Shown here: positions 4,709 to 29,768 of the stretch, one piece after another
Layout: every line of letters begins with the position of its first letter
Position numbering within the stretch: the first letter of the stretch is position 1
Assembly: GCF_000020025.1 (NCBI RefSeq)
Contig: NC_010628.1
Span: forward strand, 780,001-812,000
Source of the DNA: Nostoc punctiforme PCC 73102
GTDB taxonomy: Bacteria > Cyanobacteriota > Cyanobacteriia > Cyanobacteriales > Nostocaceae
DNA: 32,000 nucleotides
Reading direction: 5' to 3'
The notes under the pieces: model-generated
Database searches by the model: none
What the model saw: the letters and a program-made list of their open reading frames with translations, nothing else
Told to the model about the DNA's origin: nothing
Program-made: the position numbers and the translations under genes

Positions 4709-4735
4709 TAGTCATTGGTACTAATGACTAATGAC
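4704..4735 (-). repeat. 13-bp perfect inverted repeat built from STRR-like heptamers, spanning a stop codon and a start codon
   Basis: gtcattagtcatt-ggtact-aatgactaatgac (arms 4704-4716 and 4723-4735). In mRNA sense, the TAG of the upstream ORF (4728-4730) lies in the 5' arm and the ATG at 4706-4708 lies in the 3' arm. Confidence 0.7.
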
Positions 4736-5999
4736 TAAACGGTTTCCAACCCGCTAGTAAATTTGGGTAAGCCGTTGATGTGGGGAAAATATTCTGGAAG
4801 CCAGTTTGACGCTCTTGTGGCTTTTCTTTGCTCATATTCCAGAGGGATTCATAGAAAAAGAAAGAGACTCCAGCAAAATTGCGATCGCGGATTTTTTGCA
4901 CTTGTGTCTGAATCTGTTGCATCGGCACATCTCGGTTCTTCAACCCAGCCAAAATTCCCACACTGACTGGAATATGGCTCTTTGCCGCTTTCACTTCTGG
5001 ATATTCTAATTCGTTAATAAAAACATTCAAATCATCACGATATATCTGCAAAACTAAGTCTTCAATGATTCCTAGGCGTTCCCACTTTTACTTTTGCCAG
5101 TCCGCTAAAAAGAACTCGTAAGAAAAACGTTGAGGATTAGGTGCAATGGAAACTAGGCAATCTTTTTTAGTAGCTTTGATGGTTTTGAATACCCGTTTCA
5201 TAAACTCGGTGATTTTGTTAGCTCTCCAGCGCACCCATTCTGGATCTCTAAAATTTTTGGAGGGAGCTTTACCACGGTGTTCTTTTTTGTAAAGTGCCAC
5301 TGTGTAAGCATCGTAACCTAATTCTGATGGTAAGCCAAAATGGTCATCTAATTGAATGCCGTCAATATTGTAGTTTCTAACAATTTCAACGATTAAATCT
5401 TGAATAAATTGTTGTACTTCTGGGCGAAAGGGATTTAGCCAAACACGGTTATGCGTGCCTTCTTTGACAATTCGAGTCCCATCGCTGCGGCTAGTGAGCC
5501 ATTGGGGACGATTTTTAGCTAAGAGAGAGTCGGCTGGTGCCATGAAGCCAAATTCAAACCAGGGAATCACTGTTAGCCCTTTTTGATGTCCTACATCGAC
5601 AATTTCTTTGAGGATATCTCGCCCTTGCAATCCTGGTGTAGGATCGAGCGATCGCCCAATTACTTTTTGGGCAACTTTGCTGGGATACAATGTATATCCC
5701 CAATTCCAAACCGCCGGATATATGGTGTTAAAATTGAGTTCATCAAGGCGTTGCAAAGATCCCTTGAGGCGATCGCGCTCAAATAACACATCACTATCAA
5801 TATTTGTTAACCACACCCCCCTTAGCTCCGATGCTAGTTTTGGCGGCAGATTAATTTGAGCGTTCAATGGGAACGATAGCATCACCGTAGCTACCACACT
5901 CAAGGTAACGATAACGGCAAATAACCCTGACTTTCTGCTTTGGCGAATATTCCACCAAGAATGAAACTCAACACACCACTTTACAAACCTTTTCATCAT
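4728..5999 (-). pseudogene. Glycoside hydrolase-like family 10 (GHL10/DUF187, YngK-type) gene interrupted by one in-frame TAA
   Basis: ORFs 5088..5999 and 4728..5051 are in the same frame (both upper coordinates are 2 mod 3). Reading through gives ...FFLADWQK*KWERLGIIEDLVLQIYRDD..., with 12 sense codons between the TAA (5088-5090) and the TTG counted as a start by the track. The 5' part has the GHL10-like core (GVWLTN..., VIPWFEFGF, NRVWLNPF, IDGIQLDDHFGLP) plus a signal anchor. Confidence 0.7.
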
Positions 6000-7917: not shown

Positions 7918-8421
7918 TTAGGCGCTAATGGCTCGTTGTTCAGATCCAACTAACTGATTGTGAGATACATCAAATCTAATAGTGCTTGCTGCCCAATCTT
8001 TGAAATCTGGTGCTAACCAGACTAGCTTGCGTAGAATTTCATCATTAACCCACAACACCAAGGGAAACCGAAACTGTTTCCGAAACTCATTTCGCATGAT
8101 GTTGGTACTGATGATTAGTTGGTTAATTTCTACTACGGATTCTAAACCCCGTACCATCAAAGCTTCGGGTTGAGTAGCACCAATTGCACTTGTAATTGCT
8201 GTATATAATGTGTCAGCCGCAGGTGAGAGCAAGATTTTGTGGATATCTGTTGATGAAAATTCTGTTAACAGATTCAGCACTTGCTGCTGTCTTTCAATAC
8301 TGTTACAACAAGCCAATATCAGTGAGAACTCCCCACCAGAAACCATCATCGCCCTTGCCAGCCTCTTAGTGGATGCTGTGCTGCTAACTGTGTCGTTTTC
8401 TGAATTATTTAAGCCGATCAT
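7918..8421 (-). CDS. Orphan 167-aa hypothetical protein, possibly the N-terminal stump of a larger STAND/TPR-type gene
   Basis: ATG-initiated ORF isolated between two ~600-nt non-coding A+T-rich stretches. The sequence FSLILACCNSIERQQQ...FRFPLVLWVNDEILRKLVWLAPDFKDWA resembles (from memory only) the N-terminal module of large cyanobacterial NTPase/TPR/CHAT proteins. Confidence 0.45.
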   Translation of the reverse strand: MIGLNNSENDTVSSTASTKRLARAMMVSGGEFSLILACCNSIERQQQVLNLLTEFSSTDIHKILLSPAADTLYTAITSAIGATQPEALMVRGLESVVEINQLIISTNIMRNEFRKQFRFPLVLWVNDEILRKLVWLAPDFKDWAASTIRFDVSHNQLVGSEQRAISA

Positions 8422-9023
8422 TAAAAAATCCTGCTTTTAATTTTAAAAATATCTGAGCAATATTCAGTTATTCTACCCTATTAATTTTTATGCAAAAGTG
8501 TTAAGCGGGTAATTTATGATAAGTTTTTCTCTGAAACCGACTATATTACTACGGATTGCCTAACAAAAGAGGATATTCTCTATTATCCCATAATTATACT
8601 TAAGGAATAATGTAAAGGTAGTATTAAAATCACGTAAGCAAAAGATAACGCAAGTAAAAGGAAGTTAGGGAAAAATTAACAATTTAATTACACTGTATTT
8701 TTATAGATTTTGGCATCTACCATTGGTTAAGTAATTAATTCTTATATTAAGTTAAAAAAATATTCAGTATTAGTTTAACAACAAATATTGACAACTGGGA
8801 AAAAGCTCAATTCATCCTTTTGATAGAACTGTGGCTCAAAGATTTCTCGTTATTCAGAGAATACGGAATTTTTAGCTTTATTAAGATTGGTTAAGAATAC
8901 CTGAAATATAACTATTCATGAATTCAGATAAATTTGAAAGGGAAATACAACACGCTGAGTTTATTACGCATTATCAACAACAGACTATCGCACACCCTTG
9001 AGATGAATAAGACTGAGAATCTT

Positions 9024-10622
9024 CTACCCGCCAAATAAACGTCCCCAAAAACCCTTCTTCTCATTCTTCTCATTTCTATAAATCTCTAAGTTGTTACGAA
9101 TCACAGTGTTGTTAGGGTTAAGGCGAACAGCTATTTCCAGTTCGGCGATCGCTTCTTCCAACTTCCCTTGACCTTTTAGCGCAATCCCCAGGTTACAGTG
9201 AGCATCTGCATCGTTCGGGTCAATTAGCAAAGCTCTTTGGTAGGCGGCGATCGCTTCTGACAACTTCCCTTGATCGTGTAGCGCAATCCCCAAGTTACAA
9301 TGAGTGTCTGCATCGTTTGGGTCGAGGCGCAAAGCTCTTTGGTAGGCGGCGATCGCTTCTGACAACTTCCCTTGATGGTATAGCGTAACCCCCAGGTTAC
9401 AGTGAGCGCTTGCATAGTTTGGGTCGACGCGCAAAGCTCTTTGGTAGGCGGCCATCGCTTCTGACAACTTCCCTTGAGTGTGCAGCGCTTTCCCCAGGTT
9501 ACAGTGAGCGTTTACATAGTTTGGGTCGATTTGCAAAGCTTTTTGGTAGGCGGCGATCGCTTCTGACAACTTCCCTTGATGGTATAGCGTAACCCCCAGG
9601 TTACAGTGAGCGCTTGCATAGTTTGGGTCGACGCGCAAAGCTCTTTGGTAGGCGGCCATCGCTTCTGACAACTTCCCTTGAGTGTGCAGCGCTTTCCCCA
9701 GGTTACAGTGAGCGTTTACATAGTTTGGGTCGATTTGCAAAGCTTTTTGGTAGGCGGCGATCGCTTCTGACAACTTCCCTTGATCGTGTAGCGCAATCCC
9801 CAAGTTACAATGAGTGTCTGCATCGTTTGGGTCGAGGCGCAAAGCTCTTTGGTAGGCGGCCATCGCTTCTGACAACTTCCCTTGAGTGTGCAGCGCTTTC
9901 CCCAGGTTACAGTGAGCGTTTACATAGTTTGGGTCGATTTGCAAAGCTTTTTGGTAGGCGGCGATCGCTTCTGACAACTTCCCTTGCGTGTGCAGCACAA
10001 CCCCTAGTGCATTGTGAGCATATACAGAGTTTGGGTCAAGGCTGAGGGCTGCTTTGTATTTGACGACTGCTTCCTCTAACTTTTTAGCTTCGCGCAAACG
10101 ATCTGCTTCATTGATCAGGCTTGTGACTTGATATTCAAGTTCTTTTGTTCTTTGTTTTGGAGGTGAGGAATTGGAGTTTTCAACTAATCGCACTGCCTCC
10201 CGAATTCCCTTAACAACTTCTAAGAATGCCTCATCTCGGTCATTCCAGCTTTTGATAGGTTTGCGATTACTAGGTAGTGGCGACAGTTGATCGATGGGAG
10301 GAGTTTCCCAATCTGCATAACGTAGCAACACTGGGATCACACGAGCTTTTTTCGCTGTATTCTGCTCTAACGCTCGTGTCACTTCAACTGTCCAGTGATA
10401 ATCAGAATCTATAAAATCAGGGCTGATTAGCAATAATATCAGCCCAGCCTGGTTTAAATGCTCATCTATTTCGCCTTTGATTTCTTGTCCAGGGATAATT
10501 TTGCGATCGTTCCAACTTGTAATAATGTTTTCCCGACGCAAAGACGCTAAATGCTTCTCTAACTCTTGGCGTAGCGTCTCATCTTCCTGGTGGTAAGAAA
10601 TAAAAACTTCAATAGATTTCAT
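9024..10622 (-). CDS. TIR domain protein with ~10 C-terminal TPR repeats
   Basis: N-terminal ~135 aa is a TIR (TIR_2-like): EVFISYHQEDE, LILLLISPDFIDSDYHWTVEV (conserved Glu), ARVIPVLL. About ten 34-aa TPR units follow (AHCNLG.ALH.QGKLSEAIAAYQ.AL..DPN). Confidence 0.85.
   Translation of the reverse strand: MKSIEVFISYHQEDETLRQELEKHLASLRRENIITSWNDRKIIPGQEIKGEIDEHLNQAGLILLLISPDFIDSDYHWTVEVTRALEQNTAKKARVIPVLLRYADWETPPIDQLSPLPSNRKPIKSWNDRDEAFLEVVKGIREAVRLVENSNSSPPKQRTKELEYQVTSLINEADRLREAKKLEEAVVKYKAALSLDPNSVYAHNALGVVLHTQGKLSEAIAAYQKALQIDPNYVNAHCNLGKALHTQGKLSEAMAAYQRALRLDPNDADTHCNLGIALHDQGKLSEAIAAYQKALQIDPNYVNAHCNLGKALHTQGKLSEAMAAYQRALRVDPNYASAHCNLGVTLYHQGKLSEAIAAYQKALQIDPNYVNAHCNLGKALHTQGKLSEAMAAYQRALRVDPNYASAHCNLGVTLYHQGKLSEAIAAYQRALRLDPNDADTHCNLGIALHDQGKLSEAIAAYQRALLIDPNDADAHCNLGIALKGQGKLEEAIAELEIAVRLNPNNTVIRNNLEIYRNEKNEKKGFWGRLFGG
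9224..10010. repeat. Near-identical 102-bp / 204-bp tandem repeats encoding the TPR array
   Basis: The antisense shadow ORFs at 9410 and 9614 begin with the same 57 residues, so about 170 nt are identical at a 204-nt offset. The sense protein carries AHCNLGKALHTQGKLSEAMAAYQRALRVDPNYASAHCNLGVTLYHQGKLSEAIAAYQ twice in succession. Each unit contains GGCGATCGC or GGCCATCGC. Confidence 0.9.
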
Positions 10623-10657
10623 AGAGGATATGGCAGGCTGGCTGCTTTAAAAGACAA

Positions 10658-11401
10658 CTACAATAGTTTTTGCTCGATTTCCTCAAGCTGTCGATCTAAT
10701 CTATTTTGTTCTGTTTGGGTATCCTGAATTTGCACTTCTAGCTTCAGCTTTGTAGATACATCCGTTTCAATGGCGTATGCTTTACCCAGCAGTCCCAATT
10801 TTTTGCTCACGAGGTCATACTGTTCTTGCACTGAATCCCGTTCTTGCTCCCATCGCCGACGCTGGCGCTCAGTTAATACCCCACTTGTTGCAGAAGGGCT
10901 GGAAGTTGCAGGTGTAGTATTTTTAGCAGGAGTTGAGGAAGAAGTGTTTGATTTCGCCATTTCTTCAACTACTCTGCGAATCCCTTGAGCGACATTTAAA
11001 AAAGCCTCATCTTGGTCTTGCCAGGTTGTGACAGGTTTAGCATTTTTAGGGAGTGCTTGCAGTTTACCAAAAGGTGCGCCATTCCAGTCCGCCGGCTTCA
11101 GAATAATCGGAATGACACGAGCTTCCCGCGTTTCATGTCGCTCCATTGCCCGTGTCATTTCTTTGTCGTAGCAGTAATCTGAAGCCAGAAAGTTAGCACT
11201 CACTAGCAGTAGAATGATATCTGCAATATCAAGATTATCATCTATCTCATTAGCCCATTCTCTACCAGCACTGATTTCGCGATCGTGCCAAGCTTCAATA
11301 ACTCCCTGACGTTTCATCATGCTCAGATGAGTTGCCAACTCGTCTCGCAACGCTTCATCTTTGTGGGAGTAGGAAAAGAATACTTTAACTGCATTAGACA
11401 T
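10658..11401 (-). CDS. TIR domain protein with Ser/Thr-rich linker and C-terminal coiled coil
   Basis: VKVFFSYSHKDE, IILLLVSANFLASDYCYDKEM (Glu81), ARVIPIIL define the TIR. Residues ~150-175 are S/T/P-rich. Residues ~176-247 are a heptad-like charged coiled coil. A 35-nt gap separates it from the downstream TIR-TPR gene on the same strand. Confidence 0.85.
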   Translation of the reverse strand: MSNAVKVFFSYSHKDEALRDELATHLSMMKRQGVIEAWHDREISAGREWANEIDDNLDIADIILLLVSANFLASDYCYDKEMTRAMERHETREARVIPIILKPADWNGAPFGKLQALPKNAKPVTTWQDQDEAFLNVAQGIRRVVEEMAKSNTSSSTPAKNTTPATSSPSATSGVLTERQRRRWEQERDSVQEQYDLVSKKLGLLGKAYAIETDVSTKLKLEVQIQDTQTEQNRLDRQLEEIEQKLL

Positions 11402-14015: not shown

Positions 14016-14255
14016 ATGAACGCTTATAAAAAATACATCACCATTACAGATCCCAGTCAATTAATATTATCTGATTTACCTTTTCAGGTAGGACAGAGGG
14101 TAGAAATAATCATATTAGCGGAGGATAATCCAAGAGCAGAAATCAGTAAGAAATTGAGAGATTTATTTGATAAAACACAGTTATTACCAGGAGTAAAAGA
14201 TATTACAGAAGCAGAAATTGAAGCAGAAATTGAAGCTTACCAACGCGGAGAATGA
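14016..14255 (+). CDS. Putative antitoxin of a PIN toxin-antitoxin pair
   Basis: 79-aa ORF preceded by ggagg. Its stop overlaps the start of the PIN gene (ATGA at 14252-14255). Acidic C-terminus (EAEIEAEIEAYQRGE). Confidence 0.6.
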   Translation: MNAYKKYITITDPSQLILSDLPFQVGQRVEIIILAEDNPRAEISKKLRDLFDKTQLLPGVKDITEAEIEAEIEAYQRGE

Positions 14256-14665
14256 AAGTTGTTATTGATACTAATGTTTTAGTTTCTGCTGTCCTTAAGG
14301 GTAGAGTACCAAGAGAAGTTATTCAGTTTATTTTTGATAATCCTGATTGGCAATGGATAGCCTCTGAAGAAATTATTGTGGAATATAAAGAAATCTTAAG
14401 TCGAAGCAAATTTAAATTGACAGATGAGGTAAGAGGTGAATGGTTTGAAATTATCGATACATTTCTAACGCTAATTGATGTCAATTTTGAAGTTGATTTT
14501 CCCAGAGATAGAAAAGATGCAAAGTTTTTAGCTTGTGCTATGGCAGCAGAAGCAGATTTTTTGATTACGGGTGATTCTGATTTTAATCAGGCACAAACTT
14601 TGCTAAATACAACAATTATTTCTGTTTCTTTATTTAGCAGATTAGTTTGTGATGTAGGGGGGTGA
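14252..14665 (+). CDS. PIN-domain toxin (PIN_3 / TIGR00305-like)
   Basis: MKVVIDTNVLVSAVL N-terminus, with acidic residues in DRKDAKFLACA and ITGDSDF at positions expected for the PIN active site. 4-nt overlap with the upstream small ORF. Confidence 0.8.
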   Translation: MKVVIDTNVLVSAVLKGRVPREVIQFIFDNPDWQWIASEEIIVEYKEILSRSKFKLTDEVRGEWFEIIDTFLTLIDVNFEVDFPRDRKDAKFLACAMAAEADFLITGDSDFNQAQTLLNTTIISVSLFSRLVCDVGG

Positions 14666-16561: not shown

Positions 16562-16722
16562 TCAAGGTTGGGTGTGCCGCTAGCTTGGGCAGCATGAAAT
16601 ATGTCTACATGTGTGCCAAAACTCATAAATGAGTTTGTGTAGCGGTGAAATCTACCAAGGCAAAGTTAGTATCAGGAGCAATTTACATGACCAGTCCAGC
16701 ATCTGATTTACTAGATAAAATT
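16527..16722. repeat. Copy 1 of a ~200-bp duplicated segment (5' flank plus first codons of the methyltransferase gene)
   Basis: atattctgatataaatcgccataagttgggaatactcaaggttgggtgtgccgctagcttgggcagcat ... caaggcaaagttagtatcaggagcaatttacATGaccagtccagcatctgatttactagataaa aligns with 18139..18340. The ends are highly similar and the middle is roughly 70% similar by eye. Confidence 0.8.
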
Positions 16723-18012
16723 CGTCAGCAATTTGATACTTCTCCTTATCCTAGAGTTCCTCTTGATAAATCTCCTAAAGATAATCCTAATTTACTTTAC
16801 ATTCATAGCTTAGTTACACCTTACTATTTAAGGAACCAAAAAGTTATCGATACCAAAGAGAAAGTAATTTTGGATGCTGGATGTGGTACTGGCTATAAAT
16901 CATTAGTCTTAGCAGAAGCTAATCCAGGTGCAAAAATTGTTGGTATTGACATATCAGAAGAATCAATTAAATTAGCACAGCAACGCTTAGAACATCACGG
17001 ATTTGACAATGCAGAATTTCATGTATTGCCAATTCAAGAATTGCCAAAACTAAATTACCAATTTGACTATATTAATTGTGATGAGCTTCTATATCTTTTT
17101 CCTGATTTAGCTGCTGCCTTACAAGGAATGATATCTGTTTTAAAGCCTAATGGGATTATTCGCAGCAATCTGCATAGTTCAATCCAGAGATTCCCTTATT
17201 TCCGTGCTCAGAAAGTCTTTACAATGATGGGTTTGATGGACGAAAATCCACAAGACTTAGAAATGGAAATTGTAGTAGAAACGATGAAAGCTTTGAAAGA
17301 TAATGTCGAACTCAAAGCTAGAACTTGGAATCCTAATAAGTATGAAGGAGAGAATGGAAAAGAAGGAATTTTAATGAATTACTTATTTCAAGGAGATAAA
17401 GGTTACACGATTTCTGATATGTTTACGGCTTTGAAAGCGGCCGATATAGAATTTATCAGCATGGTTAACTGGCGACAGTGGGACTTAATAAACTTGTTTA
17501 AAGATCCAGATAATTTGCCTGTTTTTCTGGACATGAGTTTACCAGAAATTTCTATAGAAGAGCGGCTACAGTTATTTGAACTAATAAATCCTATTCATCG
17601 GTTAATTGACTTTTGGTGCGGTCATTCTAATCAAGTACAGGCTTTTATACCAGTTTCACAATGGGCTGACTCTGATTGGCGACTGGCAAAGGTCAGTCTG
17701 CATCCTCAGTTAAAAACTCGCAATTTCCAAGAAGACCTCATAGCCTGTATTACAGAATTCAAAATCTTTCCTATCAGTGACTATTTATCGCTAGTTGAGG
17801 AATTTGTCGGGATAGATAGCTCATTAGCACTTTGCTTAATACCTTTATTAGAACAATCCCAGCCGATGAAGTTCCTGGTAGAGCATTGGAAACAATTTAG
17901 ACCTTTAGATCCTATAACCTTAAAGCCTACAGATGAAGAACAAGCCTTTCAAATGGTGCAACAGCTGTTACTAAAGTTAGAGAGTCTTGGTTACATAATG
18001 TTAGAACTTTAA
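16687..18012 (+). CDS. Class I SAM-dependent methyltransferase with long C-terminal extension
   Basis: VILDAGCGTGYKSLVLAE (motif I), IVGIDISEE and LKPNGII, followed by ~270 aa with no motif I recognise. The track start (16645) is GTG. I prefer the ATG at 16687 because aggag lies 8 nt upstream. Confidence 0.8.
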   Translation: MTSPASDLLDKIRQQFDTSPYPRVPLDKSPKDNPNLLYIHSLVTPYYLRNQKVIDTKEKVILDAGCGTGYKSLVLAEANPGAKIVGIDISEESIKLAQQRLEHHGFDNAEFHVLPIQELPKLNYQFDYINCDELLYLFPDLAAALQGMISVLKPNGIIRSNLHSSIQRFPYFRAQKVFTMMGLMDENPQDLEMEIVVETMKALKDNVELKARTWNPNKYEGENGKEGILMNYLFQGDKGYTISDMFTALKAADIEFISMVNWRQWDLINLFKDPDNLPVFLDMSLPEISIEERLQLFELINPIHRLIDFWCGHSNQVQAFIPVSQWADSDWRLAKVSLHPQLKTRNFQEDLIACITEFKIFPISDYLSLVEEFVGIDSSLALCLIPLLEQSQPMKFLVEHWKQFRPLDPITLKPTDEEQAFQMVQQLLLKLESLGYIMLEL

Positions 18013-18138
18013 TCTAACCTGAAGTTATACATACTCAACCTGCAACTTTAACCTCGATATAATCCTGACGAGTAGAAGGATTTTGACCACCAGAGGGACT
18101 GGTGACTGTCTCACTGAGTATTTCTAATTGACTCTTAA

Positions 18139-18340
18139 ATATTGTGATAGAAATTGCCAGAATTTGGGAATACTCAAGGTTGAGTGTGCTACTCGCTAGC
18201 TTGGACAGCATAGCAAATGTTTGATGGTATGTCTTAGCTCTAGACAAGAGTTGGCATAACGATGAGAAGCATCAAAGCAAAGTTAGTATGAGGAGCAATT
18301 TAAATGCCCAGTCTAACATCTGATTTTCTAGAAAAAAATA
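18139..18340. repeat. Copy 2 of the duplicated segment, carrying a decayed methyltransferase 5' end
   Basis: atattgtgatagaaattgccagaatttgggaatactcaaggttgagtgtgctactcgctagcttggacagcat ... caaagcaaagttagtatgaggagcaatttaaATGcccagtctaacatctgattttctagaaaaa. The ATG at 18303 opens only MPSLTSDFLEKNSFS*, compared with MTSPASDLLDKIRQQ... in copy 1. Confidence 0.8.
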
Positions 18341-18494
18341 GCTTTTCTTAATCAAATTAGCTAGATCATACCCCCCTTCTCGCTTACTGAGGTTGGGGGC
18401 GGGTAACTTGAGTACTTCACTCAAGTGAAAACCACTATAATGCTTGACCAATAATAGGTAAAAAAAACGATACGGAGTAGTAAAATACAAAAAA

Positions 18495-19037
18495 ATGAAA
18501 GAGATTAAACTTCATATTGGTGGAGAAAAAAAACATCCAAATTGGAAAATATTTGATATTGAACCTCGCCCAGAAGTAGATTATATTGGCAACGCATCTG
18601 ATTTAAGCCAATTTGAAAATAATTCAATTTCTGCAATTTATGCCAGTCATGTTCTAGAACATTTTTATCATAGAATAGATAATGAGTTAATGAATACATT
18701 AACAGAATGGTATCGTGTTCTAAAACCAGGCGGGCAACTTTTTATTAGTGTCCCCGACTTAAAAAAATTATGTTGGTTTTATCTGCATCCAGAATTTACA
18801 GTAGTTGAACGTCTGCATCTAATGCGGATTATCTTTGGCGGACAAACTAATATATATGATGTTCATAAGGTAGGATTTGATTTTGAAATATTGTCTATAT
18901 GTTTAGAAGAAGTTGGGTTTACACAATACGAGCAAGTAGAGACGTTTGATATGTTTGATGATTGTAGTACAATCCGTATTTTAAATACACTAATCAGCCT
19001 CAACGTCATTGCTCAAAAGTCAACATCTTCAGAGTAA
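18495..19037 (+). CDS. Small SAM-dependent methyltransferase (Methyltransf_11-like)
   Basis: 180-aa ORF. ISAIYASHVLEHF and WYRVLKPGGQLFISVPD resemble the post-motif-I region of type 11 methyltransferases common in polysaccharide loci. Motif I itself is atypical (LHIGGEKKHPNW). Confidence 0.6.
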   Translation: MKEIKLHIGGEKKHPNWKIFDIEPRPEVDYIGNASDLSQFENNSISAIYASHVLEHFYHRIDNELMNTLTEWYRVLKPGGQLFISVPDLKKLCWFYLHPEFTVVERLHLMRIIFGGQTNIYDVHKVGFDFEILSICLEEVGFTQYEQVETFDMFDDCSTIRILNTLISLNVIAQKSTSSE

Positions 19038-19232
19038 AGCTAACCTCATATTTGATACCTAACAAGTGAGCATAAGTCTAATAATTTTCATTTAATATAA
19101 GACTTCTCTTTGATTTATGAAAAAACCCAGTATAGCTCAAAAAGGCTGATTTCCTACTGCCTACCTACGCAAAGAAGTATGGCTACACCACGCTGCGCGA
19201 ACAGAAATCAAAGCGGATTCCTATACCTATTA

Positions 19233-19250
19233 TTTGTGAAGCTTCACAAA
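19233..19250. promoter_or_regulatory. 18-bp perfect palindrome upstream of the pilin gene
   Basis: tttgtgaag|cttcacaaa, about 440 nt upstream of the pilin ATG. The half-sites resemble TGTGA/TCACA but are spaced by 4 nt rather than the 6 nt of CRP-type sites. Confidence 0.3.
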
Positions 19251-19691
19251 ATCAGGCTTGGCTAGACTTGGGGCTTGAGCAAATTGTTCTATGCAACTTA
19301 ACAGGTAATCGGTATAAGCATTTTTAACTCGAAATCAGATTTAGGGTAAGGTAGATTCGCTCGTCTCAACTGTCTCATAGAGTCTTGGTAAGTTGGAAAA
19401 AGGGTTCAATGATCTTTAAGAACCCGTAACCAGTATCAATCTATATCTCTCCAGATGGCCTCAATATATAGCTTTTTTAAGCCGAACAACACCGAGATTA
19501 GAGAGTATGAAATTGAGAAAACCCTTTATATATAAGGAAAATAGCCTATTAATTTAACGCGATCGCGATATAAACCAAAACACAGTTGAACAGTTCAAAA
19601 GAATTTTTAGGTGGGGTGATATGAAACCAAATACGAGTGGGTAAGTTACATCTAGAACACACAAGCGCTTCCTACCCCAGGAAAAACACTT

Positions 19692-20258
19692 ATGAAAACT
19701 GAATTGAAAGCAAAGTTTCTCCAACACCTCCTCGGCAAAAAGAAGGAAAATGAGGGTTTTACACTCATTGAATTATTAGTAGTAATTATCATCATTGGTA
19801 TTTTGTCTGCGATCGCTTTGCCTTCTTTCTTGAACCAAGCTAACAAAGGTAAGCAGTCAGAAGCTAAACAGTATACTGGTTCGATGAACCGCGCTCAACA
19901 AGCATACCTTTTAGAAAATGGTGATTTCACCAGTACAATGGATAAGCTAGGTCTTGGTATTAGAACCCAAACTGAGAATTATGCATACGCTATTAATGGC
20001 GGTACTACTCTGGTTGCCAACAATGGTATATCTCTGAAGGGGACGCTCAAATCCTACAAGGGTGTTGTTGTTAAATCAATAGTATTATCCACCAGTGAAG
20101 CAACTACTCTAGCCGTATTATGCCAGTCTGATACTGTTGGTGATCGGAGTGCTGAAGTAGCAAGCTATGGCACAGCTGGAACCACAGTGGCTGCAACAGG
20201 AACCACCCCATTGCAACCTGGTTGTAGCACAGGCTTTTCAGAGTTGACTTCTAAGTAA
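19692..20258 (+). CDS. Type IV pilin-like protein (prepilin with N-terminal cleavage/methylation motif)
   Basis: The leader MKTELKAKFLQHLLGKKKENEG is followed by FTLIELLVVIIIIGILSAIALPSF (Gly -1, Phe +1, Glu +5). It has two Cys near the C-terminus (LCQSD...PGCSTG, a D-region-like pair) and a Thr/Ala/Gly-rich tail (YGTAGTTVAATGTTPLQ). Confidence 0.85.
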   Translation: MKTELKAKFLQHLLGKKKENEGFTLIELLVVIIIIGILSAIALPSFLNQANKGKQSEAKQYTGSMNRAQQAYLLENGDFTSTMDKLGLGIRTQTENYAYAINGGTTLVANNGISLKGTLKSYKGVVVKSIVLSTSEATTLAVLCQSDTVGDRSAEVASYGTAGTTVAATGTTPLQPGCSTGFSELTSK

Positions 20259-20295
20259 CAACTTGAGTTCTATATCTAATTGCAAGCTTTACAAC

Positions 20296-20330
20296 AGTGG
20301 GTAGTCTAGGCTACCCACTTTAATTTTGTT
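20296..20330 (+). terminator. Intrinsic terminator after the pilin gene
   Basis: agtgggtag-tctagg-ctacccact is a 9-bp perfect stem, followed by ttaattttgtt. Confidence 0.7.
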
Positions 20331-20376
20331 CTAAATTTTGGGAATAGTACTAGTACTATCCTGAAAATTCTTGACT

Positions 20377-22587
20377 ATGACTTCTGTCCAAATTCCTAAT
20401 GACATCTCTCCATTAGAGCAGCAAGCCCAGCAATATTTTACCAAAGGTAACTATACTAAAGCTGCTAACTGCTATGAACAAGCTATCGAAATAGAACCAG
20501 AAGTGAAATCTCACTACTGGAACTTAGGATTAATGTTGCTATTGCAAGGGCAAGAAGCAGAAGCGCAAATAACTTGGCTGCTGGGTATGGAGGAGGGAGA
20601 AGCCCAACAAGTTGAGCAATGGACTGTGGAATTGATACAGGTTTTGCAAACTGAAGCCGAACGCAGAGAGACACTGGCAGATTATTCAGTTGCTTGGGCA
20701 ATTCGCCAACATATACGGGAAATCTCTCCTCAATATGTGAATAATCTTCTGTATTTGATTGAGTTATCTATTAAGCTAGAAAATTTTACTGGTGATGAAT
20801 TAGCTTCCCTAGAAGTAATTGAGTTAATTCAGTCAGAAGCAATTATAGATATTGAGTTATTATTGCAAGTATTAAACAGTATCATCAATGATGACCCTTT
20901 ACATCCTTCTGTCCTAAAGTTTGCACAGTGTTGTCTAGCCCATGTAATTCAACCTCAAGCTTTTATTAATATTTTGCTGCCAGCCGCAGTCAAAATCGCC
21001 CATTCTATGCGGCAAAATAAAGTAGCAGTATTAATAATTGAGCTATGTTTGCACCTTGAACCTGAAAATATAGAACTTCTGCGCCATCTCGCTGCTTTTT
21101 ATCTAAGAGATAATAATTATTCTCAAGGAATAGAAGTAGCTAAGTTATGCTACTCACTATCAAAGACTGTAACTGACCAAGTTTTTGCTAAACACCTAAT
21201 CCAGCGAGGATTAATGGAAGCTCCTGCTTATTGGAACGAAGCTTATACAGTTTGCCTAGAGCAGGAATATTTACTAAACTGTTTAATAGAACAACAACCT
21301 ATAAATTTGGAATCAGCTAGGGTATTACGTCTCTTCAATGCTAATTCTTATGCATCGTACTTACAAGATAACCCTGTAAAAAATAGACAAATTCAGAATA
21401 AAGTGGCACAACTTTGCCAGCTTAACGTACAAGAATATGCTAATGAAATAGTTCAGCGATATAAACAACGTAGTTTATATAAGGCAAATAAGCAAATAAA
21501 GATTGGCTACTTATGCCATTGTTTTTCTCAGCATTCAGTTGGTTGGTTGGCTAGGTGGCTAATTCAACACCAGAACCGGGAAAGATTTGATATTTATGGC
21601 TATTTTATAAATTATAAGCAAATAGACGATCCATTGCAAGAATGGTATGTTCAACAATTCACTCAAGCTTATCAAGGTGGAATTTATAGTGACGACATTG
21701 CTGAAAAAATTTATGAAGATAAGATTGATATTCTAATCGATTTGGATAGCATTACCTTAGATATTACTTGTGAAATTATGGCGCTTAAACCTGCGCCTGT
21801 ACAAGCAACATGGTTAGGTTGGGATGCTTCAGGAATACCAGCAGTTGATTACTTTATTGCCGATCCTTATGTTTTACCAGAATCTGCTCAGGAATACTAT
21901 ACAGAAAAAATCTGGAGATTACCCCAAACCTATATAGCAGTGGATGGTTTTGAAGTAGGTGTGCCAACTTTACGGCGAGACTCTCTTGATATTCCTAGTG
22001 ATGCTGTAGTTTATCTCAGCGCTCAAAGAGGATTTAAGCGCCACCCAAATACAGCACAACTCCAAATGAGAATTATTAAGGAAGTGCCTAATAGCTATTT
22101 TTTGATTAAAGGGTTAGCGGACTCTGAAGCTGTGCAGAAATTTTTTATGCAGTTAGCAGAGCAAGAGGGTGTAGAGTGTTCGCGTTTACGATTTTTACAG
22201 TTAGATCCTTCTGAGTCTGTTCACAGAGCAAATTTAGCCATTGCTGATGTTATATTAGATACTTACCCTTACAACGGTGCAACAACAACCTTAGAAACAC
22301 TCTGGATGGGTATTCCTTTAGTAACCAGAGTTGGACAGCAATTTGCCGCCCGAAATAGCTACACCATGATGATGAATGCTGGGATCGCAGAAGGTATTGC
22401 CTGGACTGATGAAGAGTATGTAGAGTGGGGTGTGCGCTTAGGCAAAGATGAGGCTTTACGACAGCAGGTGGCTTTGAAGTTGAAAGCATCTCGACAAACA
22501 GCACCATTGTGGAATGCAAAACAATTTACCTGTGAGATGGAGAAGGCTTACGAGCAAATGTGGCAAAGGTATATTGAGAAAAAATAA
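20377..22587 (+). CDS. TPR protein with C-terminal GT41 (O-GlcNAc transferase / SPINDLY-like) glycosyltransferase domain
   Basis: N-terminal TPR (FTKGNYTKAANCYEQAIEIEPE...). C-terminal ~370 aa carries IKIGYLCHCFSQHSVGWL, ATWLGWDASGIPAVDYFIADPYVLPESAQEYYTEKIWRLPQTY and LDTYPYNGATTTLETLWMGIPLVT, which I recognise as bacterial OGT/SPINDLY-family motifs. The track start at 20371 is TTG; the ATG is at 20377. Confidence 0.8.
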   Translation: MTSVQIPNDISPLEQQAQQYFTKGNYTKAANCYEQAIEIEPEVKSHYWNLGLMLLLQGQEAEAQITWLLGMEEGEAQQVEQWTVELIQVLQTEAERRETLADYSVAWAIRQHIREISPQYVNNLLYLIELSIKLENFTGDELASLEVIELIQSEAIIDIELLLQVLNSIINDDPLHPSVLKFAQCCLAHVIQPQAFINILLPAAVKIAHSMRQNKVAVLIIELCLHLEPENIELLRHLAAFYLRDNNYSQGIEVAKLCYSLSKTVTDQVFAKHLIQRGLMEAPAYWNEAYTVCLEQEYLLNCLIEQQPINLESARVLRLFNANSYASYLQDNPVKNRQIQNKVAQLCQLNVQEYANEIVQRYKQRSLYKANKQIKIGYLCHCFSQHSVGWLARWLIQHQNRERFDIYGYFINYKQIDDPLQEWYVQQFTQAYQGGIYSDDIAEKIYEDKIDILIDLDSITLDITCEIMALKPAPVQATWLGWDASGIPAVDYFIADPYVLPESAQEYYTEKIWRLPQTYIAVDGFEVGVPTLRRDSLDIPSDAVVYLSAQRGFKRHPNTAQLQMRIIKEVPNSYFLIKGLADSEAVQKFFMQLAEQEGVECSRLRFLQLDPSESVHRANLAIADVILDTYPYNGATTTLETLWMGIPLVTRVGQQFAARNSYTMMMNAGIAEGIAWTDEEYVEWGVRLGKDEALRQQVALKLKASRQTAPLWNAKQFTCEMEKAYEQMWQRYIEKK

Positions 22588-22592
22588 GTTAG

Positions 22593-22616
22593 TTGTGAGG
22601 GCTTCAGCCCTCACAA
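22593..22616. terminator. 10-bp perfect hairpin between convergent genes
   Basis: ttgtgagggc-ttca-gccctcacaa, 6 nt after the stop at 22587. A weaker aggac-taaa-gtcct hairpin at 22679-22692 lies just past the stop of the giant minus-strand gene. Confidence 0.6.
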
Positions 22617-22721
22617 TAGTCTCTAAGCTCGACTTTACTCAAGCTTATTTACTACAAACAATTGAAAAGTTCGTAGTAAGGACTAAAGTCCTCCTCTTCT
22701 GTAATTACAAATTTAAGCATT

Positions 22722-25700
22722 TCAGTGCTTACTACAAACTTCTTTATAAAAGGCTTCTAAACCTGTAACACAAGCTTTATCATCAAAAAGGCGATCGTGG
22801 TTTTGGCTCATTCTTTCTGCAATGTTGCGTCGCCAAGCCTGGTCTAGTCCTAATTTGACAGCAATTTCGATATATTCGGCTTCATTTTGAGCGATGGTAT
22901 CCGTCACTCCTAGCATTTTTAAGAAGCTGTCAGAGTGACGACCCCGCATAAATTCCCCTGGACAGGTGACAATGGGGAGATTACAAGCGATCGCTTCTAG
23001 AGTAGTATTACCACCAGACCAAGTAAATGTATCTAAATAAACGTCTGAAAGTAAGTTAATCATTAAATAGTCTAGTCGCTCTGGAATACTGAGAAATACA
23101 CAGTAATCCTCACTGTTAAGTCCAACAGCAGCAAAAGCACGCTTTAGGCGTGGCTCAAGTAAAGTACCACGCAAAAACACAAACTTAGCTTGAGGAAGGC
23201 GGCAAGCAATTTCTGCAAAAATGAAATCATATTGGGGTAGATATTTAAAAGGAGCTTGGCAGCATAAATAGATAACTGCATCATCTTCTAGCCTAAAATC
23301 GGAACGGGTTTTGATAACAGGAGGAATATATGGCTTAGGGTAAGAAACCCCAATATTGGGTAAGCGGATTAATTTTTCTGAGTAATGTTCTTGGGCATTT
23401 TCGGGCTCCATTAACTCGCTAGATAAAAAGTAATCAATTGTGGGTAAGCCAGTTGTCACAGGATGTCCCCAAGCCACACATTGCAAAGGTGCAAGCCGCA
23501 AACCCGCCATTTGCATGGTTTTAGCATCCATACCTATCTCTGGAAAGACTAAAATATGCAGTTTATCAGCAATTATCTGTTCACAAGCTGCTGGTAAGTT
23601 ATGAGGAATATGGTGAAAAACATCGCTGTAACTTTGGAACTGTTGGGTAATAGGATCTGGCTCGTTTCCCGTGTAGTAACAGTAAATTTCAAAATTTTTG
23701 CGATCGCAGTAACGTAACCAGCCAGTTAACCAAAGTGTGCCACTATAAGAATGCAGGTAATGTGAAGCGTAACCAATACGAATTTTGTTATTAGGCTGAA
23801 GCTTAGGCATAGATAAAGGAACTATCCATTGTGGATAGTTAGCTGCCATGATTTCATGTACTAACTTTCCATACTGGCGTTGCAAATCAATATCATTTTG
23901 TGCCTGATATGATAGGTAAAAATTTGTGAGGCGGCCTATACCTGCTAAAGCACTTTGTTGTTCTTTTGTAGTTTTCAGATATGTTTGCTGAATTAAATCT
24001 TGCAGTCCTTGAGTAAAGCGCTGGCGATAGAAATTAATTTCCTCTTGATTTTCGTATATTGATGGAACTGTTAAATATTTTAGAATTTGAAAAGTGTAAT
24101 CATTAGGTAAGCATATATGAGCCTTTTCTGCACTTGATATTGCTTCTTGAATAAGTCCATTACGCCGCAAGTCTATGATTAATGAAAAATGTAATCTTCC
24201 TTCCGTAGGATAAAGTTCAATTCCTTGCTGGAGGGTGTGAAAATACTCGTCTAATAGGTTTAACTGTCTATAGCAATAACTTAAATTACAATAAATATCT
24301 GCATTTACAGATTGGATTTCTAAAAGTTTTTCATATTGGGCGATCGCTTCTGTCCATCTGCCCTCTTGAAATAATCTAGTACTTAAATCAAAAACTAACT
24401 GTCCTATATGTATATTGTTAAAGCTTTCTATTTCATAAGCTGGAATATTCTCTATTAAAAATAATGCTAAACCCTCCAGGTTTTCATCTTGTAAAATAAT
24501 TCGACCGTGGAGGAAAGGAACTATAGCTCTTAGTTCAATTTCATCTAAATTCCCTAGCAAAGAAATTTCACATTCTACAGTAATATCAAAATTCTCTGCT
24601 AGTAGTAGATTCATCGCCACAGTAGATAAAACTAGATTAGCATCATCTTCAGAAATACCATTAGTATTTATAAGTAACGTTATCTGGCTACTATCAGAAT
24701 GATTGATTACCGTTTTAATTGCTTGTTCTAATTCTAGAAGAAGTAACTCTTCCGATTGCGACCAATCAGGAAAAATTATAATATTGATATTTCCATCTTT
24801 CACCGCTAAGGTGTCTATAATAGATACTTTCCCTCTGTTAGTTAAGTTATTTTTTTCTCTTTTAAATAAAATATTTAGTTGATTGCTTAAATTATCTATT
24901 TGGCAACAATGGATTTTACCTACTGCCACTTGTGCTAAAGCTTGTTTATCCTCATGTTCTAAAATAATTCTTGCATTGATGCGAGTTAGCAAAGCTTTCC
25001 ACTGAATATCAGTTAATTTACCCAATAAAGAAATTTCTAATTCTTCGGTAACATCTAAATCTTCCTCTATCAAAAGATTCATAACTACACTAGATAAAAA
25101 CAGTTCAGCATCCTCACCAGCAATGTTAGTAATATCGATAAGTAGCGTTGTATTTTTATTATTGGGATGAGTGGCAATCGCCCGGATAACTTGTTGTAAG
25201 TTTAAACCAAGAGACTCTTCTGATTGCGACCAATCAGGGAAAATAATTAAATTAATTTTATTGAGATTTAAAGAAATCAATGTAGCATTAATTAATACAG
25301 AACTAACAGTTTGCGCCATTTTTATCCAAGAAAACTGTTGCACCTGTACTAAACCTGCGGTAATTAATGAGTGACGAATACTAGGTTTTTGCACTTCAAA
25401 AAGTGAATTTGCCATTTCATGTACATCATTATCATTAACATATATTGCAGCTTCACCTGCAACTTCTGGAATTGAAGCATTAGGACAAGTAATCACAGGA
25501 CAACCACAAGCCATTGCTTCGAGTATGGGCAATCCAAAACCTTCATACTTAGAAGGATAAACTAATGCTACAGCACCAGAGTAAGCTATTGCTAACTCTT
25601 CATCACTGAGATGTAGCAGGTGAACGATACTACCTGATGTATAAGCTCTGAATTCTGGTGACAATACACCGTCACTTCCTGTTACGACAATATCAAATCC

Positions 25701-28700
25701 ATAGCTACTTGGAAGCTGTGAAAAAGCTTTGAAAAACAAAATACTATTTTTATAAACATTACCAAGCCGAACTAATAGGAAGTAGGGCTTAGTAATACCG
25801 TATTTTATTTTAAATTGATGAATATTTTCCTGAGTAGCTACTAAAAACGTTGTATGGTCAACCCCATTCTCAGCAATTGTTACAGACTCTAAGGCGATTT
25901 GTGGAAAGTAGGTTACTAAATCCCGTGCTGTATTTTTTGAAACCGCAATAAAGGCAGATGCGTGTTTAATTGCATAATGTTTTTCTTGCCAGATGATATG
26001 ATTTAAGTTTGAACCTATTAGTTCTGCTATCATGTCATGTGCCATGAATACAGAAGGTGTAGTAATTGGTGTTGTATGATAAGAAGAAATAAATAAATCT
26101 GCGCCTTCTTCATCGCACACTTGCTGTAGCATTGAGCGATCAGATTCAATATTATCGTAATCATGATATGAGATTGTGCGATATCTAATACCAGGAATTA
26201 TGGGTGCAGTACCATCACGGTCAAGGAGAATAATATGTTTAGCAAATCCATTTTTTGCCCATTGTTCTAACAATGATTGCCAGACACGAGCAATGCCAGT
26301 TTGATAAAGTTGAAAGAAAACACCATCAACTATAATTAGTGGTGTTGGTTTTTCAACTTGTGCAATTTGCTGCTGTATTTCATCTGGTTGTAAGAACTGC
26401 CAATTATTGCTGCTGAGTTCTTTTTGTGCAATTGGTACTATACCCAATTTTTCAGCAGTATCAACCCTAGTTTCATCTCTTACCCATGATAAGTATTCAC
26501 GCAGAAGAACTGGAAACTTAGTTATTTCCTGTAAAGCCTGCCACTGATAAACAGCATTACTGTAACCATAGTATTGCTCTTTAAATTGCAATTGTTGTGC
26601 TGTTACATAGGCAAAATGTTGGAAAATTAAACCAAGCCTTTCAGTTTCTTCATGTAAAAAAGGATTAACTGCCGCAACATTTTTATATTCACCATCTAAT
26701 GAGGTTTCTACTAATACGGGAGGTTCATGTGCTGCCCAAAATGCTCCTGGTTTAAATCTCCAAGTTCTTAGCCACTCTAGTTGAGGATTTTGTGTATAAC
26801 AGTTACGAGTACTGATAATTAATTTTTCTCCTACAAAATACCAGCACCAATAGAAAGCAGCTGTTTTCTCAGGGTTGCTAATGAACATTTCTCTAGCATC
26901 ACAAATCTGCTCTAATGTCCACAATTCATCTACATCAACCTGCCACAACAAACACTCCTCTTGAATGTTGACAATTGGTGCATTGACCATTTCTCGTTTT
27001 CCGTCCCAAAAAATACCCTCTGGTTTTCGGTATATTGTGACTTGGGTCGGGTAAAGTTGCGCTACTTCATCTAGATATTCTGTAGTCCCATCGTAACTAC
27101 GACCATTTTTATGGATTTCATCACTGATATTTCCACCTAGTTTCACACTCCAACTTGTGTCGTGTTTTAAGTCTGCTACACCTTCAACAATATGCCAATG
27201 CCATTTAAAAGGAAGATGTTTAAATACTTCAATGTGATACTTAATAAACGGTTGCCCATTTAGGACTATTGTAAAAAAATGAATTGGCAATTCTGGCATT
27301 GAGTTATTAACAGCATTCAAGACTTCTAATTCTTGACGAATAACCAGCTTAGGCAGTTCAGTTTTACAAATATTATCATTATTAAAAACGGATTCAAATA
27401 AGTATTGAGCAGCTTGATTTTCTGGTATTTTTCTGACTTCTTGTAGAATTTCTCTTAATGCACTCTTTCTAAGTATTCCAAATGACAACGCACTAAGCGG
27501 AATGTTGAGTAGTGGAAGTATTTCTAATGCTTGTGGATATGTAATGTTTCCCTGGCGGAATACAAGTTTTTGTTGCTGATTGAATACCCCAGAGATAAAT
27601 ACGCCATCCTCTATTCTGTTTTCTACAGTTGATAGCCAACCTCCGGTAAAAACTCCATTTATATCTTGAGAATCTGTAGATGTTAGGATATCAATGGCTG
27701 AGGATATAAATGATTCATCATACTGAGTATAGTTGTTAGCGATAAGTATATAATCTGCTACTATATTTTCTGTTAAAGATAAAATAGAGTCTATGATAGT
27801 TTGATAATTGCTTAATTCGCAATCATTAATTTCATATATCACTATGTTTTTATATCGAGATTTATGCAAATAATCAGGGAAAATTTGACTTTCAATCGGT
27901 GATAAAGTATTGTATTTTAGATATATAATAGCTACTAAAAAAATATCTGGAACTAAATTATTATGATAATTTAAACTCTGTTCTTTTATGAGAATTTTAT
28001 GATTTTCTATTTCTTGCAATTCTTGCTTGTAAAAATCTTCTTCTTGTTCTGGCAATCGATTATCCAAATCGTTACTAGGTAAATTATCGAGGGAAGAACC
28101 TAGCATAATTCTGTTACAAACTTTATCTAAGGTTGGATCATTACCTGGCTGCAAATCATCTAAACTTTCAAATCTCAATTCGTGGGAATAAAAATTCTTT
28201 ATACCAATTGAGCGAAATTTATGAGAAAATTTAAAGAAGTAAGCATTCGTAAAGCGATAAAGTCTCTTTAAATCTTCTGATGTTAGTTTAGATGAATCTT
28301 TCAATAGGTTATCAACGAGTTGATTTAGATGTTCAATACTAGTGTCTTGAATAGTGTATCGTGAGGCTTTTTCATAGGATGAAGTTGCTAATGTTGCTGT
28401 TGGTACACCTCTAGCGATCGCTTCAATTGCCACTGTGCTAAAAAAAGCGATCGCTGCATCTGTATGCCAAAGCAATGCATAAGAAGTTAACTGTTCAGAA
28501 GGCATTACAACGCGGACATTTTCTGGTATAGAAAATACCTGTTGATAAGCTTTTGATAAAAAATCGCTTTCTATTGGTGTATCTTTATTACCTCCTATAT
28601 AAGGATGATGACGAATTACTAAGTATTCATTTCTATTTTTAAATATCTCTATTAAATTTTTAATAATATCAAATTGCGTGGTAATTTTTACCTTCCCTTC

Positions 28701-29591
28701 TAGCGCCGCTAGTTCATCTTCGCTTGACGTAAATACAGCGAATATTTTTGCGTCTAACGGTATCCTAAGTTGATGATGGATATTTACAGGACTTGTTTGA
28801 AAGTTATAAAAAGCAGGCCAGTTTATATCTATACCATATTCACGCTTTATAAAATAATTTTTAGTCTGTACTAATTCTTCATTATTCAGTGTTATTTCTT
28901 CCCAAGCTTTTACACAATCTAAGGGTGGTTGGCAACTCCATGTAGGATGGTTATCAAAGAAAGCAAAGCTATCATCAATCGAACCTCTTTCGTGAGTAAT
29001 TACGTCAATTTTCATCTGATGTGCTACCTCAAATGCTATACGATAGGGAGCAAATCGACCATTAAACAGAAACACATTAGTCGGTTGATATTTATTAAAT
29101 AATCTAATTAACGCATTGTAAGTCACTAAACCATCTATTAAATATTTTCTATGGATATTCTGGACATAATTGCTAGATAGCCCTGCATCAGCTATTCTAA
29201 AGTGAGTATGAATGGTTGAAGTTACCCATTTACCAATTGGTAAACTATCATATTTAGCATTTTTATAGTCTTGAGGAAGGACTGTTTTCACCCATTGATT
29301 AGCAATAATATAATCGTCGTTTTCAATAAAATTACGTAGTTGCATATATGGAAGTCCAAATAAATCTTCAAAGAAGTTTTTGCCGACCTTAGCACAGTTT
29401 TCACATAATAATTCTTTGTTATTATTTAACCTTGTAATAGCGCAGTCATTGTAAACTCCGTCACAGCCTATAACCAAAACTTCACAACTGCGAAGTTGTA
29501 GACCAGTAGCTACAACAGCATCGAGTTGGTTATGAATTAACCAAAAGCCATACGGAGAAAAGAACAGAACCTTATTTTTTTTAGACATCAT
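22722..29591 (-). CDS. 2,289-aa multidomain glycosyltransferase: KpsS/KpsC-like, degenerate GT2-like, GT-A (DxD), GT4, 2x unknown module, TPR and GT41
   Basis: Single uninterrupted ORF. Approximate map (aa / nt):
- 1-450 / 29591-28240: Capsule_synth-like ([32 protein letters not shown]).
- 560-740: GT2-like with ANNY in place of DxD.
- 765-1060 / 27300-26410: GT-A-like ([18 protein letters not shown]).
- 1085-1440 / 26340-25270: GT4 ([19 protein letters not shown]).
- 1446-1760 / 25257-24430: duplicated [11 protein letters not shown] modules.
- 1770-1900: TPR.
- 1930-2289 / 23800-22725: GT41 ([56 protein letters not shown]). Confidence 0.8.
24430..25260. repeat. Internal tandem duplication (two ~115-aa modules, 468 nt apart) inside the giant ORF
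   Basis: [81 protein letters not shown] versus [81 protein letters not shown]. The Trp codons are at 25230 and 24762. Confidence 0.85.
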
Positions 29592-29768
29592 GTTGATTTA
29601 GTTGCTAATAAAAAAACAAATTGTTTGTGCAATATTTTTAAATAAAACTGCTGATTATAATCAAAATTATAAGCTCACTTTAATATAACTTTTTTACTGA
29701 TAGTAGTTATAGTTGCAATAATTTATAATACCCAATACTTGCAAAAATATTTCATTCAAATTATAAAA

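Follow-up and report, generated by a model that had tools for sequence, protein, structure and literature searches.

The described systems closest to the locus treated here are the ternary conflict systems coupled by effector-associated domains (EADs), in which iSTAND, MoxR and vWA proteins are combined (Kaur, Burroughs, Iyer and Aravind, eLife 2020, PMC7159879; eLife 2021, PMC8195603). EAD9 was proposed to "primarily recruit[s] the signaling components" (PMC7159879), and EAD-bearing genes may either belong to the operon or reside at another genomic site (PMC7159879; PMC8195603). A second point of reference is BcTir/Tpr of Bacillus cereus, where both genes are required for anti-phage activity and NAD+ is cleaved; BcTpr carries an N-terminal TIR-superfamily N-glycosidase domain with a catalytic Glu, referred to as MilB-like, followed by C-terminal TPRs (preprint 10.1101/2023.05.26.542521). 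Here we analyze 32,000 nucleotides of Nostoc punctiforme PCC 73102 (contig NC_010628.1, positions 780,001 to 812,000; hereafter the window), and in particular two adjacent genes, TIR-EAD9 and TIR-TPR. Judged from sequence comparison, the C-terminal domain of the first is an EAD9, a helical hairpin with homology to iSTAND N-termini. We consider that the pair has a somewhat better than even chance of being the detached sensing and signalling arm of an EAD9-iSTAND/MoxR/vWA "ternary" conflict network.

A first-pass annotation of the window had described two same-strand TIR open reading frames (ORFs), 35 nt apart, and this arrangement was confirmed, on the minus strand. Both proteins start with a TIR domain recognized by Pfam TIR and by TIR_2 (the latter with E=1.5e-17 for TIR-EAD9 and E=1.6e-15 for TIR-TPR, which also matches TPR families), and Pfam assigns an NTPase domain (NACHT, NB-ARC, nSTAND) to neither. 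In the TIR NADase superfamily the catalytic Glu is expected in the conserved helix after strand beta-C, and the earlier suggestion that both proteins retain it is borne out. E81 of TIR-EAD9 is unchanged across 16 orthologues and corresponds in alignments to the Glu in Cat1 and in the Arabidopsis TIR protein 3jrn. E80 of TIR-TPR, within a WTVEV motif, lines up with the Glu in Cat1 and in flax L6 and is kept in the window copy as well as in 15/15 pair-linked orthologues. An extra TIR-TPR paralogue, L013b, has Q in its place. Thus, each of the two genes likely encodes an NAD-cleaving TIR enzyme.

The pair is probably co-transcribed as an operon of 2.4 kb in total. The spacer holds no terminator-like site, and a promoter and terminator scan was uninformative, with fewer sites than in shuffled sequence. 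Upstream lies a gene initially taken for glk, which instead encodes a ROK-family sugar kinase that scores below the NCBIfam glucokinase cut-off. A hairpin past its stop codon is probably the ROK terminator, which would imply that the pair has its own promoter.

An AlphaFold2 model of TIR-EAD9, with a predicted local distance difference test (pLDDT) score of 80, divides the protein into a TIR domain (residues 1-154), a linker that is rich in S/T/P and disordered (154-174), and a hairpin (178-246) composed of helices 178-211 and 215-246 with a pLDDT of ~89. Foldseek searches with this model returned TIR domains as top matches (RPPT, RUN1, L6, MAL, SPARTA). The linker had thus been annotated correctly, whereas the ~70-aa "coiled coil" proposed to follow it is replaced by the EAD9 adaptor hairpin. 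The Pfam family PF19962 (Effector-Associated Domain 9) passes its threshold in TIR-EAD9 orthologues, some of which are named 'TIR domain/Effector-associated domain 9' by JGI. We then built a hidden Markov model (HMM) of TIR-EAD9 proteins restricted to their C-terminal 72 aa. This model matched residues ~5-70 in 120/120 retrieved iSTAND homologues, with E-values down to 6e-22. Congruently, BLASTP aligned the window EAD9 with the iSTAND N-termini of Nostoc KVJ3 (48% identity over 60 aa, E=8e-14) and Tildeniella (45% identity, E=9e-12), and an invariant ETD (residues 212-214) at the predicted turn of the hairpin is present in TIR-EAD9 and iSTAND N-termini alike.

Through this homology TIR-EAD9 is connected with the ternary MoxR-vWA-iSTAND systems that Kaur et al. 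2020 described, and the earlier view that the pair has no recognizable partner does not hold. One genome per species was scanned, and in three cyanobacteria outside Nostocales, an Oscillatoriales metagenome-assembled genome (L025), Tildeniella nuda (L026) and Floridaenema (L027), the TIR-EAD9 orthologue (57-60% identity) is immediately followed by a gene with EAD9 at its N-terminus. The gene order in L025 and L026 is TIR-EAD9, EAD9-iSTAND (PF19995 + PF19962), MoxR-type AAA+ and CoxE-type vWA, and this is the ternary iSTAND system that Kaur et al. 2020 predicted (PMC7159879). Related Nostoc genomes hold the core genes away from the pair. In Nostoc KVJ3 the pair is found at ~2.87 Mb, with the ROK gene upstream as in the window, and that contig also bears an EAD9-iSTAND/MoxR/vWA locus, at ~3.88 Mb; another contig holds a further such locus, followed by a GH25 gene. 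Nostoc DSM 114159, which also carries the pair, has a syntenic core, with CHASE2 and caspase-EAD9 genes after it. The cores of loci L089 and L090 have no TIR-EAD9 in cis. Hence, in Nostocales TIR-TPR takes the position of iSTAND next to TIR-EAD9, with the cores elsewhere in related Nostoc genomes.

EAD9 was also encountered in other proteins. These include a caspase-EAD9 beside the iSTAND core of L090 (15587-16639), a weak CHAT-EAD9 (L087, 16329-17198), a 772-aa TIR-EAD9-X protein in Leptolyngbya (L043, 7986-10304), and a 60-aa EAD9 remnant (L020, 4731-4910) just upstream of a second TIR-TPR.

Several observations weigh against placing the pair in the ternary network. With Pfam EAD9 the window copy reaches 17.7 bits, short of the cut-off of 25, and no iSTAND, MoxR, vWA or other EAD9 gene is present in the 32-kb window. 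When EAD9 domains were ranked against that of the TIR protein, the iSTAND EAD9 of the same genome came 8th to 43rd of about 110, giving no co-evolution signal. TIR-TPR has no EAD9 and is therefore linked to the EAD9 network by adjacency only. Finally, literature searches yielded no published experiment on EAD docking or ternary systems, both of which are computational predictions.

In the second protein, ~20 residues separate the TIR domain from the TPRs. The ~10 TPRs noted at first pass are seen as ten DPN/NPN motifs at a spacing of exactly 34 aa, which fall into three repeat types, and the variation among the repeats is concentrated at the canonical positions 2, 9, 10, 12 and 13. In TPR proteins these positions are found on the ligand-binding face. 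At the DNA level the array contains a recent tandem duplication (9143-10004), which Tandem Repeats Finder describes as a 102-nt unit x8.5 with 85% matches and also as a 204-nt unit x4.1 with 93% matches. Orthologues range in length from 356 to 687 aa or more, and the repeat array probably acts as a sensor. A search for an EAD9 within TIR-TPR returned spurious 19-22 bit matches in TPR helices, and this candidate was rejected. The TIR domain of TIR-TPR is 43-50% identical to that of TIR-EAD9 and represents the more divergent clade, with close relatives from Nostocales-type loci only.

Of 18 genome loci from Nostocales, 14 have TIR-TPR as the next gene downstream of TIR-EAD9, in the same orientation, and these are spread over Nostoc, Calothrix, Brasilonema, Scytonema and Tolypothrix; in L020 TIR-TPR is instead upstream, beside the EAD9 remnant. 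A reciprocal metagenome scan from the TIR domain of TIR-TPR, in which some contigs duplicate the genome loci, placed TIR-EAD9 directly upstream in 7/8 informative close orthologues. Co-conservation as neighbours, which the first-pass annotation had set as a check, is accordingly supported from both sides. The gap between the genes is 20-50 nt in 14 other loci. The pair occurs in at least four distinct flanking contexts, namely next to ROK, next to arginase with Uma2, next to an NAD-salvage operon and next to unrelated genes, and clustering of flanking ORFs over 19 loci (the window and the 18 genome loci) revealed no universally conserved third gene. As the flanks differ among loci, the adjacency of the two TIR genes is maintained amid changing surroundings.

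Such cohesion across differing contexts, with no conserved third gene, would suit a self-sufficient two-gene module for abortive infection, essentially the model put forward at first pass. TIR-TPR would then sense the trigger, both TIRs would co-assemble, NAD+ depletion would itself be the effector, and EAD9 would serve self-oligomerization only. The catalytic Glu retained in both TIRs is in agreement with this, as is a tested analogue, BcTir/Tpr, with its requirement for both genes, NAD+ depletion and a cyclic ADP-ribose isomer (10.1101/2023.05.26.542521). However, the likeness to BcTir/BcTpr is one of architecture, and the upstream BcTir has lost the Glu that its Nostoc counterpart keeps. 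Moreover, the homology between EAD9 and the N-terminal domain of iSTAND is clear, and TIR-EAD9 orthologues occur in cis with an iSTAND/MoxR/vWA operon in L025 and L026. We regard an independent module as rather unlikely, although it is the main rival reading.

Orthologous Uma2-family genes (PF05685, a PD-(D/E)xK 'putative restriction endonuclease'; 54-94% identity) adjoin the pair in eight loci of four genera and are absent from the window. In some genomes they could contribute a nuclease as third component; alternatively, the linkage may be no more than old synteny. Uma2 and a 167-aa gene downstream of the pair in the window, orf167, were each considered as a universal third gene and dismissed, being linked to the pair in a subset of loci only.

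The distribution of TIR-EAD9 bears on whether the pair serves immunity at all. The best matches reach 94% identity, to Nostoc sp. C057, and orthologue identity declines from 85-94% within Nostoc to 74-79% in the remaining Nostocales and 57-62% outside the order. Identity hence roughly follows taxonomy, which points to vertical retention over long times and not to a patchy spread as an island, and no full-length match was recovered from PLSDB plasmids. Furthermore, one Nostoc lineage has the pair directly downstream of a pncB/nadD-like/nrtR/nadE operon. These points would fit a non-immune signalling or developmental module of filamentous cyanobacteria, acting through NAD+ turnover or an ADP-ribose signal in programmed cell death, differentiation or stress responses. 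The TIR domain of TIR-EAD9 is, on the other hand, a shared cassette, with 61-76% identical copies in Cyanobacteria, Acidobacteria, Chloroflexi, Sorangium and other groups, fused to AAA_35, AAA_16, NACHT or nSTAND1 NTPase domains and in some cases to WD40 repeats. A role in conflict systems has been predicted for the families of the cassette, EAD9, iSTAND and the nSTAND1-type domain nearby (PMC7159879), variable TPR copy number is typical of sensor arrays, and the NAD-operon context is confined to a single lineage. We therefore hold a non-immune role to be improbable.

The NAD-salvage and regulation operon (pncB, nadD-like, nrtR, nadE) is located directly upstream of TIR-EAD9, on the same strand, at L009 3028-7739, and likewise in L011, L014 and L015, mostly in metagenome-assembled sequences. 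It is a suggestive neighbour of NAD-cleaving-type TIRs, yet represents a single evolutionary event.

Both proteins match the PADLOC ThsB1 TIR model PDLC00420 strongly (E=4.8e-69 for TIR-EAD9 and E=4.7e-50 for TIR-TPR), as would be expected if they were two ThsB-type TIR sensors signalling to a distant ThsA-like effector. Thoeris is, however, defined by the adjacency of ThsA and ThsB, genes for SIR2, SLOG or Macro proteins are missing from the window, and the 19 loci compared share no conserved third gene. A Thoeris-like arrangement is consequently very improbable, and the first-pass opinion that the locus is not Thoeris stands, as does its report that the flanks in the window lack ThsA, STING, NTPase and nuclease genes.

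For the reading we favour, a detached arm of the ternary network, the following sequence of events can be proposed. The TPR array would bind the trigger, probably a peptide or a protein, and binding would drive TIR-TIR hetero-assembly of TIR-TPR with TIR-EAD9. The assembled TIRs would cleave NAD+, yielding an ADP-ribose-derived signal or NAD+ depletion, and EAD9 would dock the assembly on the EAD9-iSTAND hub through homotypic contact. The MoxR/vWA pair of the hub would then release effectors, for which GH25 lysozyme, caspase-EAD9 and an FGE-sulfatase-domain protein, all adjoining related Nostoc cores, are candidates.

Three Nostocales loci (L008, L009 and L017) lack TIR-TPR, and a leucine-rich repeat (LRR) gene adjoins TIR-EAD9 instead. 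According to Pfam the neighbours are an LRR-TIR beside a COR-TIR ORF in L009 (8832-10676 and 11316-12803, both on the minus strand) and an LRR-Roc-COR-TIR in L017 (1736-5116, minus strand), while the LRR-family ORF of L008 (1-415, minus strand) is cut off by the contig end. LRR-family genes may accordingly be an alternative receptor-type partner of TIR-EAD9. This would be in line with a two-tier TIR pathway in Nostocales resembling TLR/MyD88, from a repeat-receptor TIR via TIR-EAD9 to iSTAND/MoxR/vWA hubs in trans, a proposal that we consider unlikely in this extended form. Here the trigger would be detected by TIR-TPR, or by LRR-(Roc-COR)-TIR in loci without it; the receptor TIR would recruit the adaptor-like TIR-EAD9 via TIR-TIR contact; and the EAD9 hairpin would pass the signal to one or several hubs in trans. 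A further LRR-family ORF beside TIR-EAD9, in L015 (10925-13927, minus strand), was recognized only via similar N-terminal sequence.

Table 1. Positions of the features discussed, numbered from the first letter of the window or, for Uma2, within the locus named.
Feature	Position	Strand	Basis or remark
TIR-EAD9 gene, 247 aa	10658..11401	-	ORF; Pfam TIR_2, PF19962 in orthologues, AlphaFold2, Foldseek
TIR domain of TIR-EAD9, aa 1-154	10940..11401	-	Glu E81 codon 11159-11161, codon checked
EAD9 adaptor domain, aa ~176-247, predicted two-helix hairpin	10661..10876	-	HMM, BLASTP, AlphaFold2
Intergenic spacer between TIR-EAD9 and TIR-TPR, 35 nt	10623..10657	-	Sequence
TIR-TPR gene, 532 aa	9024..10622	-	ORF; Pfam TIR_2 and TPR families
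TIR domain of TIR-TPR, aa 1-150	10173..10622	-	Glu E80 codon 10383-10385
TPR array, about 9-10 repeats	9087..10130	-	Pfam, DPN/NPN motifs
Hairpin CCCCGACTTTTcaaAAAAGTCGAGG past the ROK stop codon	11516..11540	-	Sequence reading
orf167, 167-aa gene, 600 nt downstream of the pair	7918..8421	-	Orthologue clusters, profile search
Uma2 upstream of the pair	L007 6710-7237, L012 6783-7343, L093 4138-4698, L100 231-800		
Uma2 downstream of the pair	L018 10080-10643, L019 10459-11022, L021 10919-11482, L023 3016-3579		

The gene orf167, described at first pass as a truncated-looking orphan, is intact and conserved. Its orthologues, of 163-167 aa, form more than 100 clusters in Nostocales, and a profile search retrieved 1085 representative proteins, many of them 900-2060 aa long and matched at their N-terminal ~160 aa. 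Seven of these large proteins were scanned, revealing nSTAND1 in 5/7 and WD40 in 4/7. In view of the full-length conservation and the profile matches, orf167 is the N-terminal domain of nSTAND1-WD40 proteins in free-standing form and not a truncation. It has no Pfam family match, and the family may represent an undescribed adaptor or effector domain of proteins resembling nucleotide-binding leucine-rich repeat receptors (NLRs) that also exists as a solo gene. Only 4 loci have it downstream of the pair, which makes it uncertain whether orf167 is part of the module. We also considered orf167 as a degenerate iSTAND, and rejected this on the lack of a Pfam match, non-significant BLASTP and Foldseek results, a low-confidence AlphaFold2 model (pLDDT 61) and an HHalign probability of 0.3% against the iSTAND alignment. 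The 600 nt that separate it from TIR-TPR (8422-9023) have a G+C fraction (GC) of 0.28 and contain no ORF, Rfam match or tRNA, and Rfam and tRNA searches of the entire window likewise detected no RNA features.

Elsewhere in the window, a GHL10 glycosyl-hydrolase-like gene (4728-5999, minus strand) is split into ORFs at 5088-5999 and 4728-5051, while its homologues in L018 and L023 are intact with 451 aa; the split is probably a frameshift, pseudogene or sequencing error. Overlapping small genes at 14016-14665 (plus strand), coding for a 79-aa protein and a PIN_3 protein, are likely a toxin-antitoxin module. The A+T-rich region 16645-31897 (GC 0.32-0.40) resembles a glycosylation and pilin island, with methyltransferases, a type IV pilin-like G/H protein, a 738-aa TPR-GT41 protein, a DegT aminotransferase and a 2289-aa protein with GT4 and GT41 domains.

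Given the papers of the Aravind group, the locus is unsurprising, and its value lies in offering a compact experimental handle on a predicted class of systems. MoxR-vWA ternary systems and the "EAD principle" comprise large families predicted in multicellular bacteria, and the 2.4-kb operon is a tractable entry to them, with one EAD9 enzyme, one putative sensor, both catalytic residues accessible to mutation and candidate docking partners identifiable in sequenced Nostoc strains. If coupling in trans is true, some bacterial immune pathways would be wired genome-wide via adaptor domains, similar to the death-domain pathways of animals, and operon-based tools such as PADLOC and DefenseFinder would systematically miss them. 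Should the two-tier proposal hold, one sensor operon could serve several effector complexes, making immunity networked and not operon-contained. If the pair instead works alone, it would be a cyanobacterial relative of the little-studied TIR/TPR NADase modules.

Compared with known systems, the Nostoc pair shares with Thoeris the match to the PADLOC ThsB model and the tandem arrangement, as several tandem TIR genes are common there, but its TIRs are extended by EAD9 and TPR and the locus has no ThsA. Neither Pfam nor PADLOC detected an adjacent ThsA (SIR2, Macro or transmembrane domain with SLOG) among the flanking genes, and with no ThsA present PADLOC would call nothing at this locus. With the TIR-STAND/NLR-like proteins (TIR-nSTAND1, TIR-NACHT, TIR-AAA_35) of many phyla the pair has in common the 61-76% identical TIR cassette, used as an end module, whereas it lacks an NTPase domain and has the sensor repeats joined straight to TIR. 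The parallel to animal Toll-like receptors (TLRs) and MyD88 is one of analogy only, a repeat-receptor TIR (TPR, or LRR in L009 and L017) standing beside a TIR that is fused to a small homotypic adaptor domain, with no homology besides the TIR domain; as the Nostoc TIRs keep the catalytic Glu, they are probably enzymes and not pure scaffolds. BcTir/Tpr shows the same order as the Nostoc locus, an upstream TIR gene and then a TIR-like glycosidase-TPR gene, when architectures alone are compared, but BcTir has K37 instead of the catalytic Glu and carries no EAD.

The ternary systems are the nearest relatives. TIR-EAD9 has exactly their "signalling enzyme fused to an EAD" architecture, the EAD9 it carries shares homology with that of the iSTAND N-terminus, and its orthologues in L025 and L026 reside inside such an operon. 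What differs is that the window TIR-EAD9 is detached from the core and fixed beside a second TIR with a TPR array, and the core, if present, is in trans. Keyword searches of the main text of PMC7159879 and PMC8195603 did not find a TIR-EAD9/TIR-TPR dyad without a core, and the other literature searched contained no description of the dyad. TIR-EAD9 is an already known predicted architecture, and the fixed dyad detached from the core is a variant of it.

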